DNA from: a phage
Sequence record: PZ495249.1
Direction: 5' to 3' (one strand)
Length of the DNA: 64,000 bases
The position numbers were made by a program, and so were the translations under genes. Below, piece by piece: positions 38,251 to 52,329 of this stretch. Each line of letters starts with the position of its first letter. The stretch's first letter is position 1. The notes under the pieces are model-generated. The model made no database searches, was not told the DNA's origin, and saw nothing but the letters and a program-made list of their open reading frames with translations.

Positions 38251-38424
38251 TTGCTGTGAAGACAGTGATTTACATCCTTCGGATTGTTTCGACGATCCAA
38301 ACGAAGGATACGCCCACAACGTATCAATGTGCTATAATTGTGGGGCTATTGTAATAGATAGAGTTTGGTTGAACAGTGGGAGAACTATTGTGAAGTCAAA
38401 CGGGGAAGTTTTACAATCTTAAAC

Positions 38425-43003: not shown

Positions 43004-43636
43004 TTATTTGTATGGATAAAACAGATTGTTACCTTCAATCTCTTTGTGGTAGATCGGTTTATTCTTGGCAATATATGCCAGCTTTTCAGCAGTTTGGATG
43101 TTTGGTGCAGGGTTTTCACCGAACACATCCTCAGAGTGGATGTAGCTCAACCCACGGATAGGGAATCCCCAACCAGCATCAGACCCAGTAAGACCTGCCT
43201 TTATTGCACGATGTGATCGTGCGGCATCTTCGTAACCGTAACGGTTATATTCAAGATTATACCCGCCAATCGTTTCCATTGCAAGTTTATCTTGATAAAC
43301 GAAACAACCAAGAGCACTGAACCAGTAAGTGATATCACTCTCAGCATACAAGAACTCACCACCGAAGATATCTGGCAGAACCATGTAGTGAATACCATTT
43401 GCTTGCGCTTCCTGGATGAAATAATCTTCCCAACCCAGACGAGTTGGATAACAGTCGTCATCAAAGATGAATACGTGATCGTAGCCATCAAAGTGAGCAA
43501 GCACCTGATTACGTGCATGACCAGGACCAAGCCGCTCTATATCTGTGTAGATAAAGGTTTCGTGCGTAGTTTTCTCAAAGAACTTCGGATTAATCTCACG
43601 AAGTCCCATAGTGATTACGCCAACGCCAATTTTCAT
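43004..43636 (-). CDS. GT-A fold (family-2-like) glycosyltransferase
   Basis: Track ORF; DDD (DxD) motif and GGYNLEYNRYGYEDAARSHR. Confidence 0.6.
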   Translation of the reverse strand: MKIGVGVITMGLREINPKFFEKTTHETFIYTDIERLGPGHARNQVLAHFDGYDHVFIFDDDCYPTRLGWEDYFIQEAQANGIHYMVLPDIFGGEFLYAESDITYWFSALGCFVYQDKLAMETIGGYNLEYNRYGYEDAARSHRAIKAGLTGSDAGWGFPIRGLSYIHSEDVFGENPAPNIQTAEKLAYIAKNKPIYHKEIEGNNLFYPYK

Positions 43637-44740: not shown

Positions 44741-44962
44741 CTATTCTACTATTTCCGTTTCAACAACCGCTGTTGTAAATATCCCGCAGAGTAAGACAAG
44801 CAACAGGAAACCGAACCGCTGCATATTACTCCACTCTGTAATGTCCAAAGTAGGCAGGTAGAGGAAAATGAAAGCAATTAGGGCGTAACCTACGCTAAAA
44901 ATGCTAATCAACATTATCCAGAAAACGGTAATCCAGATCATAGATTTACGCATATTACTCAT
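44741..44962 (-). CDS. hypothetical membrane protein
   Basis: Track ORF 44741..45007 trimmed to internal ATG with GAGGAAGAG upstream. Confidence 0.4.
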   Translation of the reverse strand: MSNMRKSMIWITVFWIMLISIFSVGYALIAFIFLYLPTLDITEWSNMQRFGFLLLVLLCGIFTTAVVETEIVE

Positions 44963-45488
44963 TCCACTCTTCCTCAATTTTCTGGAGTGCTTCCCACACC
45001 CCTTCAATTACACGTTGGCTAACAGCGTCAGGATGTTCTTCTGACATGTCCACACCCTCCACGATTTCAGGATACCATGTATACTGCCACAGATTGAAGC
45101 TGTTACGGATATCTTGTCCAAGCGTGTGGTGATATTCGATCAGGTCTTCACGTTTGCATTCACGCAAACCCGATTGCTTGCGAACCTCTTCTGGTAGTTC
45201 ATTCCACCAGGTGAGCACTCGTGCAACCATCAGCTTAATACCTGGGCGTGATCGGTAGAGTTTCCAGCCGTCAGACCAGAACACTTGTTCGATGGCTTCG
45301 AGAAAATCTCGATCAACGTCATCAGATTGCACCTCGACAGAACCTTCTCGCAGATATGTACCTACGCCAACATCGATCCGGTAGCCTTTCAGTTGCAGGG
45401 CATTACGCAGGGTTTCTGGGATGATATTATCCTCCACTTCTTTCACTGCTTCCACGGATGGAACCCAAATACTGATAAGTTTGAACAT
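44955..45488 (-). CDS. hypothetical protein
   Basis: Track ORF. Confidence 0.5.
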   Translation of the reverse strand: MFKLISIWVPSVEAVKEVEDNIIPETLRNALQLKGYRIDVGVGTYLREGSVEVQSDDVDRDFLEAIEQVFWSDGWKLYRSRPGIKLMVARVLTWWNELPEEVRKQSGLRECKREDLIEYHHTLGQDIRNSFNLWQYTWYPEIVEGVDMSEEHPDAVSQRVIEGVWEALQKIEEEWNE

Positions 45489-46690: not shown

Positions 46691-47092
46691 TTATCTCTCA
46701 CTTATCTCCATAGTCTCAGATAGTTTCTTCATCTCTAAGGTAGAAAGTAAGTTATCAGAAGCTAAGAGCATAGCATCTACCTCAGAGTAAGATAATGCCT
46801 TTCTCTTTAATACATCTCTTTCATGTTCAGAGATAAAGCCTAAAGCTAATGCTGTATCCCAGGCTGCTGACACATGTCCTCTTATCCGGTTAACAACTAT
46901 CTCCATCTGGGAAGTCTTCCACTTGAAGATCCACCAACCACTCTCCACTTTCGTAGAAAGCAGACGTTGATTAACCTCCTTCACTAATCGATCACGATAA
47001 CCAGCTTTCCTGCGAGCAGTGATTAACAAATCACGAGGCACACGGTGTACACCACCTTCTGGTTCAACATAGTTTGTGTAGAACATAATCAC
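46691..47092 (-). CDS. hypothetical protein
   Basis: Track ORF. Confidence 0.45.
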   Translation of the reverse strand: MIMFYTNYVEPEGGVHRVPRDLLITARRKAGYRDRLVKEVNQRLLSTKVESGWWIFKWKTSQMEIVVNRIRGHVSAAWDTALALGFISEHERDVLKRKALSYSEVDAMLLASDNLLSTLEMKKLSETMEISER

Positions 47093-47379
47093 CTCATAAG
47101 TGTAAGATGGATTTCATGGTTTTGTGATAATTCACGAGTTCGCGTGTAAGCGTACCAACGACTACCAGATCCTTTATTACTAAAGTTTTGACCATTGAGA
47201 GGTATACGATTAAAGAATGTCACCTCACCATGCTCAAAGAGTCGCTCCGATTCTACCATGATTTTCAACTGCTGGTAGTAATATTCGAAAGCTTTCCCTC
47301 TTTCACAAATCTCTTTGGCAAGGACGTTGTGTTTCACTCGATCAGCTAAAGTCATAAGCCCTCCTCTGGGTGTTCGCAA
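47089..47379 (-). CDS. hypothetical protein
   Basis: Track ORF. Confidence 0.45.
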   Translation of the reverse strand: MRTPRGGLMTLADRVKHNVLAKEICERGKAFEYYYQQLKIMVESERLFEHGEVTFFNRIPLNGQNFSNKGSGSRWYAYTRTRELSQNHEIHLTLMR

Positions 47380-47412
47380 AATTTTAGGGAGGGAGGTTCA
47401 CCTTCCCATCCC

Positions 47413-47667
47413 TCAATATTCTGTCACTATACCCTTTACCAACGTTTGACGCAACATATTTGTATCGTGATCCAGGCAAATAATCACTAAGTCTCGATCC
47501 CAACCTCCCATCAATTCGATGTTAGCTGCGATTTCCTGTGCAATCCACTCTTCATCGTGATAAAGGGCTTCCATCTCTTTGAGTTCAGCGTAGATTGCTG
47601 CTCGCTCTTCGTCGGTGATTGGTGTCCCATACCGAGAAGGAGTAAACACACTCCATCCGTCCATCAC
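47413..47667 (-). CDS. hypothetical protein
   Basis: Track ORF. Confidence 0.45.
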   Translation of the reverse strand: MMDGWSVFTPSRYGTPITDEERAAIYAELKEMEALYHDEEWIAQEIAANIELMGGWDRDLVIICLDHDTNMLRQTLVKGIVTEY

Positions 47668-47906
47668 TTATCCTCCACGTCACGCTGCTTGATCGTGCAG
47701 CTTATGGCTGGTGAGTAGTCTATCAAAGTACCATCTTTCAAATACACTCGTGTGCCACTCTCCAAAGTCATTGCTGAAATAACCTGATCCTCTGACCAAG
47801 TTACAACTTTGTTTTCGGTGGGATCATCACATTTGACAGCATACACTGTTGATGCATCACAACCTGCGGTGAGAAGGACACACACTGCCAGCAGAATCTT
47901 TTTCAT
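47664..47906 (-). CDS. small lipoprotein
   Basis: Track ORF; MKKILLAVCVLLTAGC lipobox. Confidence 0.55.
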   Translation of the reverse strand: MKKILLAVCVLLTAGCDASTVYAVKCDDPTENKVVTWSEDQVISAMTLESGTRVYLKDGTLIDYSPAISCTIKQRDVEDK

Positions 47907-48019
47907 TTATTTCCCCTTATTGCCTAACCAATACACCAGAGCAATATCCTGGAAAGCTGTGAGCCACAGCATCCAGTGATACATCCCATCCCCGAAGAAA
48001 TGCCAGATAATTGCGCTAA

Positions 48020-48274
48020 TCATTTCTTCTTATACTCATCAAAGCAACCGAGAGGCTCTACTTCATAGCCATCGTATTTAAGCACCATATACTGGCAACC
48101 TGACTTGCGATCAGTGATAATCGCATCAATGAATCCAGACATCCCAACTACTTCGAAACGATCACGCACCACTGCGTCAGATGTGGTGAGTGGTTGAGAA
48201 ATCTGTGCTCCGGCTTGTGCTTGATCACAACCAGCGAGGAGCAGCAGTGCTGCCCCAATAAGAATCTTACGCAT
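48020..48274 (-). CDS. small lipoprotein
   Basis: Track ORF; MRKILIGAALLLLAGC lipobox. Confidence 0.55.
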   Translation of the reverse strand: MRKILIGAALLLLAGCDQAQAGAQISQPLTTSDAVVRDRFEVVGMSGFIDAIITDRKSGCQYMVLKYDGYEVEPLGCFDEYKKK

Positions 48275-48761
48275 CTTGTTCTCCTGTTACAAAGAAGGTG
48301 GCTCCTACTTTCTCGAAGAAAGCTGGAGTGTAGCCGTGATCACATTCAGGGACAAACTCATCCAGACAATGATCGTAGGTGTAATACTGGTCTTCTTCCT
48401 CATTGTAATGGAAAGAAGCCGTGAAGAGCGCCTGGCCTGGTCTACCCCACCAGGTGGCAACAAAGTTTTGCTTGTGTGGGAATCCTTCATGGATTGCCAA
48501 CTTAGGTGCGATTAGCGTACTACCGAGTTGTGTCACCTCATAATCATCAGTCCACGTATAGTGGAAGCCGCCGCTGTCAGCGACATACACTCGTTCACTA
48601 TCTTTGGTGATCATCACCTTGTAAGCCTTGAGATCTTCGTTATCCTCATACCCTTCAAGGATTAAATACTGATCGCCCATCTTGCGCATCACAATCGTGC
48701 CAGTGTGCTCATAGCCAGCGTCATGAATGCGCTGACCAAGAGCCATAGTGTGTTTACCCAT
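48267..48761 (-). CDS. hypothetical protein, tandem paralog B
   Basis: Track ORF; LILEGYEDNEDLK and YTWTDD shared with next gene. Confidence 0.5.
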   Translation of the reverse strand: MGKHTMALGQRIHDAGYEHTGTIVMRKMGDQYLILEGYEDNEDLKAYKVMITKDSERVYVADSGGFHYTWTDDYEVTQLGSTLIAPKLAIHEGFPHKQNFVATWWGRPGQALFTASFHYNEEEDQYYTYDHCLDEFVPECDHGYTPAFFEKVGATFFVTGEQDA

Positions 48762-49036
48762 TATTTCAGCTCCTCTGTCAGACTTGGATCTTCGGTCCAG
48801 GTATAATATCCATCACCAACCTCCTGTAAGAATGCCTTGGGACCGTTCTCAAGGATGATCACTACACGACCTTCCGGCTCTTCAATTAGCGGAAACACAC
48901 GTTTAACCTCTGAGTTGTTTTCATAACCCTCCAGGATTAGCGGTTCACCATTATCACTGGCTTTAGCCACTACGATAACAGTGTGATCAAATGCCTCGTC
49001 ACGGACGATATCGCCCAAGTTTAATTTTAAACTCAT
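48761..49036 (-). CDS. hypothetical protein, tandem paralog B
   Basis: Track ORF; LILEGYENNSEVK, YYTWTEDP. Confidence 0.5.
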   Translation of the reverse strand: MSLKLNLGDIVRDEAFDHTVIVVAKASDNGEPLILEGYENNSEVKRVFPLIEEPEGRVVIILENGPKAFLQEVGDGYYTWTEDPSLTEELK

Positions 49037-49045
49037 AAACCCTCC

Positions 49046-49309
49046 TCAATAAAGATGAAACATAATTTTATAGTGGTGAATAGTGCTTGTCAACAAGGTT
49101 TGAGAAAGTGGCGGCAATTCTCCCAATGCTTTAATCATGTTTTTACAGTTGATATATCTTTCCTGATCAAACCCGCGACGGATCATATGGGTTGTAGCCA
49201 AGTAGTGGGCTGCACTCATAATGTCGTTTGCCAACTCTTGGGCTTTTTGAACATCAGCAGCCTCTTTTCGTGCTCTCAACAAGGCTCTTGTTTTCCAGAC
49301 CGTGATCAT
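49046..49309 (-). CDS. hypothetical protein
   Basis: Track ORF. Confidence 0.45.
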   Translation of the reverse strand: MITVWKTRALLRARKEAADVQKAQELANDIMSAAHYLATTHMIRRGFDQERYINCKNMIKALGELPPLSQTLLTSTIHHYKIMFHLY

Positions 49310-51162: not shown

Positions 51163-51368
51163 GTTTTCACCTCGAAAGTTATACCCCAAAGCCTTTCAAT
51201 ATCATAATCGGGAATAGCATCGCCATCTCCATCAATTATTACCAACCCGTAAGAAGATAGCCTATTGCTGTCCGGCTCGCACTTGAACAGTTCAAACGCC
51301 TGGTAAGTTTCCCCATCTTTGAAACACGCACAATTCGTGTTGGGCTTACATTTTGCAATCACTTTCAT
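51159..51368 (-). CDS. hypothetical Cys-containing protein
   Basis: Track ORF 51159..51419 trimmed to ATG with AGAGGAGG RBS. Confidence 0.45.
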   Translation of the reverse strand: MKVIAKCKPNTNCACFKDGETYQAFELFKCEPDSNRLSSYGLVIIDGDGDAIPDYDIERLWGITFEVKT

Positions 51369-52329
51369 TTGAAACCTCCTCTGTAAGGGTGTCCACACGT
51401 ACACCACCAAATCTTTCATAGATACTAACCACTTTATCGTAGTCTGTCAAGGCTACCGTTTCTGTCCATCCATCAGGCATGTCAAATTTGGATACAACAC
51501 AACACTGCAAAGTATCTTTACATGTTTTTTCTGCTGCTTTGCACAGTTTAGTGGTTTCAAACCTGTACAATCCAATACGTTCCATCTTAACTTTGTTGTT
51601 ATAATTTTGTTCTCTTATACGAAGATCACTATTTGTTGCTACCCCAAACTTAATAGCCATAACCACACCATTATCGCGTATGATATTGATATAACATTCA
51701 AATTGATTATGTCCTGCACACTCAGGGCAACCTGATCCGCGTAAAAGAGAACCCGTGGTTTTCACCTGTTCACCATGTACTGGACATATGTACTTAAACT
51801 TAGTAGTGTTCCCAATACGTTCAGGACTAATTTCTAACCACCCGTTAAAAATTAATCCTGTTTTTTCAAGTTCTTTTTCTATCCTGTACTGCCATTGCTC
51901 ATTGTTAAATCTGAAATTATGTGCGCACCTACACGGAACGGAACCTCTTGTCAAAGATTGTGTTGTGGATAAAAATACCCCAGAACAGTTACCGCTGCTC
52001 ACGTAGCCATCTACCGAACACTTAGGACAGAACACTTGCCATTGCGAGGCATGACCATCCAAATCATTATCATTAACTGGCGTGAAAACCGTCCCCTCTG
52101 TAAACTTACCTGTTTTGTAAAAATTTTCAATGTGCTCAGTAACGGTTAATGGCTTGGGTAATAAAGCTGATAGAGCCTCACTTGGACTATCTCCTCGGTG
52201 TAATCTTGCACGATATGATCCATTCTTGATACCCAACCAATCGCAAATTTGCGTCATGTTAAGTAAATTAACATCTGAACTCTCAAATACTTTACCATCC
52301 AGTGTTAGTTTTATCTCTAATTCCACCAC
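51346..52329 (-). CDS. hypothetical Cys-rich protein, possibly nuclease/Zn-finger-like
   Basis: Track ORF 327 aa; several CxxC/CPxC pairs. Confidence 0.5.
   Translation of the reverse strand: MVELEIKLTLDGKVFESSDVNLLNMTQICDWLGIKNGSYRARLHRGDSPSEALSALLPKPLTVTEHIENFYKTGKFTEGTVFTPVNDNDLDGHASQWQVFCPKCSVDGYVSSGNCSGVFLSTTQSLTRGSVPCRCAHNFRFNNEQWQYRIEKELEKTGLIFNGWLEISPERIGNTTKFKYICPVHGEQVKTTGSLLRGSGCPECAGHNQFECYINIIRDNGVVMAIKFGVATNSDLRIREQNYNNKVKMERIGLYRFETTKLCKAAEKTCKDTLQCCVVSKFDMPDGWTETVALTDYDKVVSIYERFGGVRVDTLTEEVSNESDCKM
51422..51450 (-). promoter_or_regulatory. sigma70-like promoter inside 3' end of upstream CDS
   Basis: Minus strand TTGACA-17nt-TAGTAT about 54 nt upstream of 51368 start. Confidence 0.45.

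Follow-up and report, generated by a model that had tools for sequence, protein, structure and literature searches.

What two small lipoproteins could do for a virulent phage, and at which membrane of its host they would do it, is the question raised by two short open reading frames (ORFs), here called LpA and LpB, in a stretch of 64,000 nucleotides of phage DNA (sequence record PZ495249.1; hereafter the window). The source of the window is a virulent phAPEC8-like myovirus (Stephanstirmvirinae) of about 150 kb. Among the superinfection-exclusion factors that Gram-negative phages encode, small lipoproteins such as Llp, Cor and Rtp45 are understood best, and each of these works at the outer membrane. 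LpA and LpB had been viewed in this light in an earlier note on the same DNA, as candidate factors of superinfection exclusion or receptor masking comparable to the small lipoprotein of T5.

Genomic context, operon and lipoprotein signals

The plus-strand half of the window is occupied by genes of nucleotide and DNA metabolism (ligase, exonucleases, ThyA, NrdAB). Around position 38300 this metabolic module gives way to small genes arrayed along the minus strand, and at this point the GC skew also changes sign. Beyond ~38.3 kb, the genes are mostly small, minus-stranded and without assigned function, accompanied by a glycosyltransferase and an HNH endonuclease (Table 1). A megablast comparison of positions 47000-49000 with phage genomes yielded no match, and no structural, tail, fibre, receptor-binding or lysis family was matched by the scanned neighbours of LpA and LpB. 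The gene position of LpA is common to the window phage and its Phapecoctavirus relatives.

Table 1. Coordinates of features in and around the LpA/LpB operon, numbered from the first nucleotide of the window.
Feature	Position	Strand	Remarks
Glycosyltransferase	43004..43636	-	phrog_2456, 5e-52
88-aa ORF	44741..45007	-	two apparent hydrophobic segments
LpB prolipoprotein	47664..47906	-	80 aa; starts MKKILLAVCVLLTAGC, followed by DASTVY
LpB signal peptide and lipobox Cys16 (T-A-G-C), then Asp-Ala	47859..47906	-	direct sequence reading
LpB Cys16 codon	47859-47861	-	tgt, read from sequence
LpB +2 Asp codon	47856-47858	-	gat, read from sequence
sm38 ORF	47907..48023	-	38 aa, aromatic and hydrophobic; MISAIIWHFFGDGMYHWMLWLTAFQDIALVYWLGNKGK
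LpA prolipoprotein	48020..48274	-	84 aa; starts MRKILIGAALLLLAGC, followed by DQAQAG
LpA Cys16 to AQA/G motif (residues 16-22)	48209..48229	-	motif typical of an SPase I site
LpA +2 Asp codon	48224-48226	-	gat, read from sequence
LpA Cys16 codon	48227-48229	-	tgt, read from sequence
LpA signal peptide and lipobox Cys16 (L-A-G-C), then Asp-Gln	48227..48274	-	direct sequence reading
164-aa ORF	48267..48761	-	
91-aa ORF	48761..49036	-	
Sigma70-type promoter	49065..49093	-	TTGACA-17 nt-TAAAAT; upstream of LpA/LpB operon
HNH/homing-type endonuclease	51346..52329	-	phrog_681

Both genes belong to an operon with the order 91-aa ORF, 164-aa ORF, LpA, sm38, LpB and 84-aa ORF. The promoter upstream of it agrees with the sigma70 consensus at 11 of 12 positions and is the sole match to TTGACA-N16-18-TA[ATC]A[AT]T on either strand of the 64-kb window. 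Its sequence recurs with 100% identity in L003 and L005, two related contigs, though coding constraint may be a further reason for this conservation, because the promoter falls within the 3'-terminal part of the 87-aa gene upstream. As a consensus match only, it suggests that the operon may be transcribed early by the RNA polymerase of the host.

Two genes at the head of the operon vary among relatives. In the 164-aa ORF two genes seem to be fused that occur separately in relatives: its counterparts are L017:401-646 and L017:639-863, and only the 81-aa N-terminal part exists in phi1_175008. By eye, its N-terminal half resembles the upstream 91-aa ORF as a paralogue (motif LILEGYE.N...YTWT.D in both); the 91-aa ORF itself is present in some close relatives and absent from others.

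Direct reading of the minus strand confirms the description in the earlier note, according to which two ORFs begin with signal peptides that end in LAGC and TAGC and are followed by Asp. In each the n-region consists of K/R residues (MRK in LpA, MKK in LpB) and precedes a hydrophobic core of 12 residues, with a Kyte-Doolittle hydropathy of the h-region of 3.0 over 11 residues; Shine-Dalgarno sequences (AGGAGAA and AAGGGG) are present for both genes. LpA (LAGC) and LpB (TAGC), each with Cys16, were both classed as lipoprotein precursors by criteria comprising a positive n-region, an uncharged hydrophobic core, the motif [LVI][ASTVI][GAS]C and a Cys at position 15-35. Under a rule modelled on PROSITE PS51257, they are the only two to pass among the 470 ORFs of at least 40 aa in the window. 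The lipobox pattern by itself is not beyond chance, because about 1.5 such ORFs per 64 kb are expected from shuffled sequence.

It is their conservation that marks LpA and LpB as genuine genes. Together with sm38, the small gene between them, they are under purifying selection: compared with contig L003, at a protein identity of ~78%, dN/dS is 0.15 for LpA and 0.10 for LpB. In the closest LpA relatives the lipobox Cys persists and position -2 takes only A, V, S or M, residues that a lipobox tolerates. All close relatives of LpB keep the Cys too, Cys-Asp is found in every lipidated LpB homologue (P0014, P0015, P0090 and P0094), and relatives at a greater distance have SPase I-type signals in place of the lipobox.

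The third conserved gene, sm38, had been missed in the earlier note. The LpA stop and the sm38 start share the overlap ATGA, the sm38 stop directly adjoins the LpB start, and sm38 appears to be translationally coupled to both genes. Relative to L003 it carries five conservative substitutions (dN/dS 0.085). Gene callers called it on L003 and missed it on L004 and L005; it is absent from phi1_175008 and L017, and no significant homologue was found in the phage database. Its membrane insertion is uncertain, because the hydropathy reaches only 0.89 (Kyte-Doolittle, over 19 residues).

The LpA and LpB domain families

In the AlphaFold2 model, mature LpA consists of a flexible linker of ~20 residues and a subsequent antiparallel beta domain of five strands (pLDDT 84 overall and >90 in the mature domain), in which two Cys are located on adjacent strands (60-66 and 70-77). 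Both are among the invariant residues of the mature domain (T54, D55, G59, C60, Q61, G76 and C77) in an alignment of 78 sequences (alignment A2). LpA matches phrog_8801 (1.8e-6), and its residues 39-67 score 17.4 bits against Pfam DUF6440 (PF20037), below the gathering cut-off of 26.5. A distant relationship to DUF6440 is likely, since several LpA homologues have precomputed PF20037 hits; membership in DUF6440 or phrog_8801 would explain nothing, because neither has a known function.

Profile searches recovered 87 relatives of LpA, nearly all of 75-96 aa, and further ones were located in annotated phages by tblastn. They occur in Klebsiella- and E. coli-type Stephanstirmvirinae and in jumbo phages (Pseudomonas OBP, Edwardsiella pEt-SU, Serratia Yubaba, Klebsiella aerogenes N1M2, and phages of Pantoea and Shewanella), and the LpA motif is present in large virulent phages that infect six host genera. 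A search of 185,579 representative bacterial genomes showed it to be essentially absent there.

The way in which these proteins are anchored varies. A lipobox is present in ~20 of the 78 aligned sequences, and an ordinary SPase I signal peptide in ~58 (P0016 by eye); in the lipidated relatives position +2 is D, N, T or S. Soluble-type relatives occur in phages of Pseudomonas, Edwardsiella, Serratia, Shewanella and E. coli, with SPase I sites such as VMA/DT in phiWec179 and AMSA/EH in OBP (here and below a slash marks the cleavage position). Since most members carry SPase I signals, it is periplasmic export that defines the LpA family, with a lipid anchor only in some of its members, and because the anchor varies within the family, tethering and the choice of membrane may not matter. 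A single Ser/Cys change seems to toggle the family between soluble and lipidated forms.

Several observations concern individual members of the family. In Escherichia phage ESCO13 the homologue (ESCO13_00047, L016:1414-1752) shows a tandem duplication of the mature core, with TGALDYIITDTKTGCQFAIVYNGGVIPLGCFSE occurring twice. A homologue from a JGI metagenome (P0029) bears the label 'PBP1b-binding outer membrane lipoprotein LpoB'; LpA has no LpoB match in NCBIfam, and the label was rejected as a probable annotation error caused by the signal peptide. The LpA homologue of Petsuvirus jumbo phages begins at, or 1-3 nt past, the end of a gene of ~330 aa (L010:446-1426 and L011:438-1442, i.e. pEt-SU_207 and OBP_289), which has neither a Pfam or PHROG match nor an obvious signal peptide. 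The search for a conserved partner beside the jumbo-phage homologues returned neighbours without Pfam or PHROG match that look cytoplasmic.

Mature LpB comprises 65 aa and is predicted with confidence to fold into a small SH3-like barrel of six strands that begins directly after the lipid Cys, with conserved Cys26 and Cys70 (mature positions 11 and 55). The family is rare: a search of 1.8 billion representative proteins returned 13 matches, six of which are proteins of 76-83 aa. The remaining ones, giant proteins with Big_2, cadherin or RTX repeats, were rejected as spurious, being summed weak matches to repeated strands. A further relative occurs in the E. coli jumbo phage JNE01. Lipidated relatives have Cys-Asp, and several others possess SPase I-type signals. 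LpB differs in position in the related phage L017, and the gene is absent from phi1_175008. An alignment-based search for further LpB loci was unsuccessful, as no stretch of the alignment is conserved enough.

LpA and LpB were also considered as paralogues, and this was rejected: their profile alignment spans the signal peptide only, and no relationship links their mature domains. In both families each homologue carries either a lipobox or an SPase I-type signal peptide, two Cys are invariant, and the periplasm is therefore their conserved site of action. No significant family was found for either protein in Pfam, NCBIfam or PADLOC. Sub-threshold matches to DUF6440 and Invasin_D4, and matches to FlgH, LptM and HslJ that involve the signal peptide only, were not accepted as family assignments, and a profile search of the PDB with LpA returned no match. 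Among the closest known systems we count the small enterobacterial lipoproteins of the YgdI/YgdR type (PDB 3bdu) and other small SH3-like beta-barrels. In its organisation the LpA family is also analogous to the MliC/PliC lysozyme inhibitors, whose single periplasmic domain likewise occurs in lipid-anchored and soluble forms; this is an analogy of organisation only, and neither a sequence nor a fold match to MliC/PliC was found.

Membrane sorting and the comparison with Llp

The NrdA protein of the window phage is 98% identical to that of Klebsiella phages (phi1_175008) and ~91% identical to that of E. coli Phapecoctavirus. Judged by NrdA identity alone, the host is probably a member of the Enterobacteriaceae, as the Asp+2 rule of lipoprotein sorting presupposes. 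In enterobacteria, Asp at position +2 is a signal for retention at the inner membrane, usually combined with Asp, Glu or Gln at +3 (PMC9595528, PMC6469965). LpA has Asp-Gln at these positions, a strong form of the signal, and LpB has Ala at +3, which is outside the usual strong partners of Asp+2. As far as sequence signals indicate, both proteins are probably lipid-modified on Cys16 after export via Sec and probably retained on the inner membrane. The two invariant Cys of each probably form a single disulfide.

The same N-terminal regions also hold potential sites for SPase I. In LpA an AQA/G motif lies 6 residues past Cys16, and lipidated forms of the family in general carry AxA 5-6 residues past the Cys, aligned with the SPase I sites of non-lipidated homologues; LpB has an SPase I-like site, GCDA/S, just past the lipobox Cys. 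Because such a site is kept after the Cys, LpA and LpB may be partly or wholly released as soluble protein. In the extreme case neither would be lipidated, SPase I cutting LpA at CDQAQA/G and LpB at GCDA/S to yield soluble periplasmic proteins, which would agree with the alignment of the AxA motifs and with the soluble nature of most LpA members and several LpB relatives. However, the lipobox is canonical and correctly placed, its Cys is invariant among the nearest LpA relatives, whose adjacent positions change only to permitted residues, and Lgt modifies such precursors prior to cleavage, so that we regard complete loss of the anchor as unlikely.

The prediction of inner-membrane retention bears directly on the comparison with T5. 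In exclusion of the Llp/Cor type, LpA and LpB would be carried on to the outer membrane, into its inner leaflet, and would obstruct the receptor used by their own phage from its periplasmic side. T5 Llp is a protein of 77 aa (signal MKKLFLAMAVVLLSAC, followed by ST), whose gene abuts that of the receptor-binding protein pb5. Its mature form has a disulfide between Cys11 and Cys58, linking the N-terminal to the C-terminal part, and resides at the inner leaflet of the outer membrane (bioRxiv 10.64898/2026.03.26.714494). There are resemblances to this system: LpA and LpB, like Llp and Cor (~60-65 mature residues), are small lipoproteins, encoded by a lytic phage and probably expressed early. For LpB they extend to the positions of the mature Cys (1, 11 and 55, compared with 1, 11 and 58 in Llp) and to the mature length (65 and 62 residues), and the best PDB hit of the LpB profile is an Llp chain (8a60_B), at a non-significant E of 0.41.

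This alignment, however, reflects the signal peptide: in hhalign it spans no more than 27 columns, BLASTP likewise covers the signal peptide and 11 residues, and the match between LpA and LpB, which is confined to the signal peptide, scores about as well. Against phrog_1119 (Cor/Llp), which recognises T5 Llp over its full length at 1.1e-19 as a positive control, LpB has no match at E <=10 and LpA matches with residues 1-20 only, again the signal peptide (E 0.18). Nor is Llp among the structural neighbours listed for the LpA and LpB models. Furthermore, LpA and LpB have Asp at +2 where the outer-membrane protein Llp has Ser, no receptor-binding-protein gene was recognised among the neighbours scanned, and most relatives of LpA are not lipidated. 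A 65-residue domain tethered to the inner membrane could not plug an outer-membrane transporter. An Llp-type mode of action is, on this evidence, quite improbable. Of the idea of superinfection exclusion or receptor masking, the part that survives is that LpA and LpB are phage factors directed to the envelope; the T5 model itself is not supported, given Asp+2 and the lack of a Cor/Llp family match.

The sorting signal bears equally on a role in lysis, in which LpA or LpB would be an o-spanin or a unimolecular spanin. Both are small lipoproteins, and there are weak PHROG matches to an 'Rz-like spanin' (E 0.04 and 0.21), which are limited to the signal peptide. Yet an outer-membrane spanin could not carry Asp+2, an i-spanin gene neither adjoins nor encloses either gene, a C-terminal transmembrane helix is lacking, and an endolysin or holin match is absent among the scanned neighbours; the domains, moreover, are predicted to be folded and disulfide-containing and are not Pro-rich. 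In a related Phapecoctavirus the spanins are reported as two separate genes, described under the lysis proteins (PMC12210895). We consider a spanin function barely conceivable.

Candidate roles at the inner membrane and in the periplasm

Small lipoproteins are a familiar theme in phages, and LpA and LpB vary it by their inner-membrane signal. Both families are uncharacterised: no characterised member of either was found, and the literature on DUF6440 and on lipoproteins of Phapecoctavirus gave a genome report and a mention of spanins only. Our preferred reading, with a probability of about 0.35, is that they may act in exclusion or protection after adsorption, at the inner membrane or in the periplasm. 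LpA and LpB, as two unrelated small beta-domain proteins exported via Sec, would be co-transcribed, probably early, by the host RNA polymerase from the accessory-gene arm of the genome. They would bind envelope components stoichiometrically at the level of the inner membrane and periplasm, and such binding would protect the infected cell against secondary genome injection or envelope damage. The step blocked would be the one at which T4 Imm and Spackle, P22 SieA and TP-J34 Ltp operate.

Those four proteins likewise act early and after adsorption, in the periplasm or at the cytoplasmic membrane. TP-J34 Ltp, from a Streptococcus phage, is anchored as a lipoprotein on the outer face of the cytoplasmic membrane and has helical repeat domains, and Spackle is alpha-helical. 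LpA and LpB, in contrast, are predicted to be all-beta, and they have no sequence similarity to Imm, Spackle, SieA or Ltp. Spackle does resemble them in being small, periplasmic and made with a signal peptide (PMC7677548). Within the pair, LpB is the better candidate for exclusion and is slightly preferred, because it is rare and changes position between related phages.

The distribution of LpA is of a different kind. Its motif is invariant in phages of Klebsiella, E. coli, Pseudomonas, Edwardsiella, Serratia and Shewanella that have unrelated tails and receptors. Given that its family is confined to phages, spread widely among them and strongly conserved, LpA probably binds a target common to gamma-proteobacteria. 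It is possible, if tentative, that the two proteins, and LpA especially, are not exclusion factors at all and instead are periplasmic effectors of host takeover, which would modulate a conserved machine of the host envelope (a peptidoglycan hydrolase or synthase, Tol-Pal, a protease or a stress sensor are candidate targets) and thereby stabilise the infected cell or tune the timing of lysis. The restriction of the family to phages, the dispensability of lipidation in most of its members and the gene position shared with the Phapecoctavirus relatives are consistent with such a role, and because LpA is conserved across phages with unrelated tails, takeover fits this protein at least as well as exclusion.

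A broader reading, rather doubtful as a whole, would combine these elements. LpA would represent a phage-only family of periplasmic mini-domains in large virulent phages of gamma-proteobacteria, among them phAPEC8-like phages, OBP, pEt-SU, Yubaba and N1M2, which binds one conserved envelope component and alternates in evolution between a soluble form and forms tethered to the inner or the outer membrane. Jointly with LpB, the mobile partner, it would constitute a class of lipoproteins of Gram-negative phages, anchored in the inner membrane and active after adsorption, whose mechanism differs from that of Llp/Cor.

For the annotation of phage genomes, the locus illustrates that a lipobox in a phage ORF does not amount to an Llp-like protein, since the residue at +2, the gene context and the distribution of the family alter the reading. 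A pair of proteins tethered to the inner membrane, from a group of Klebsiella/E. coli myoviruses of the type used in therapy, would widen the known repertoire of exclusion, and LpA could point to a conserved envelope target that is exploited by many large lytic phages.
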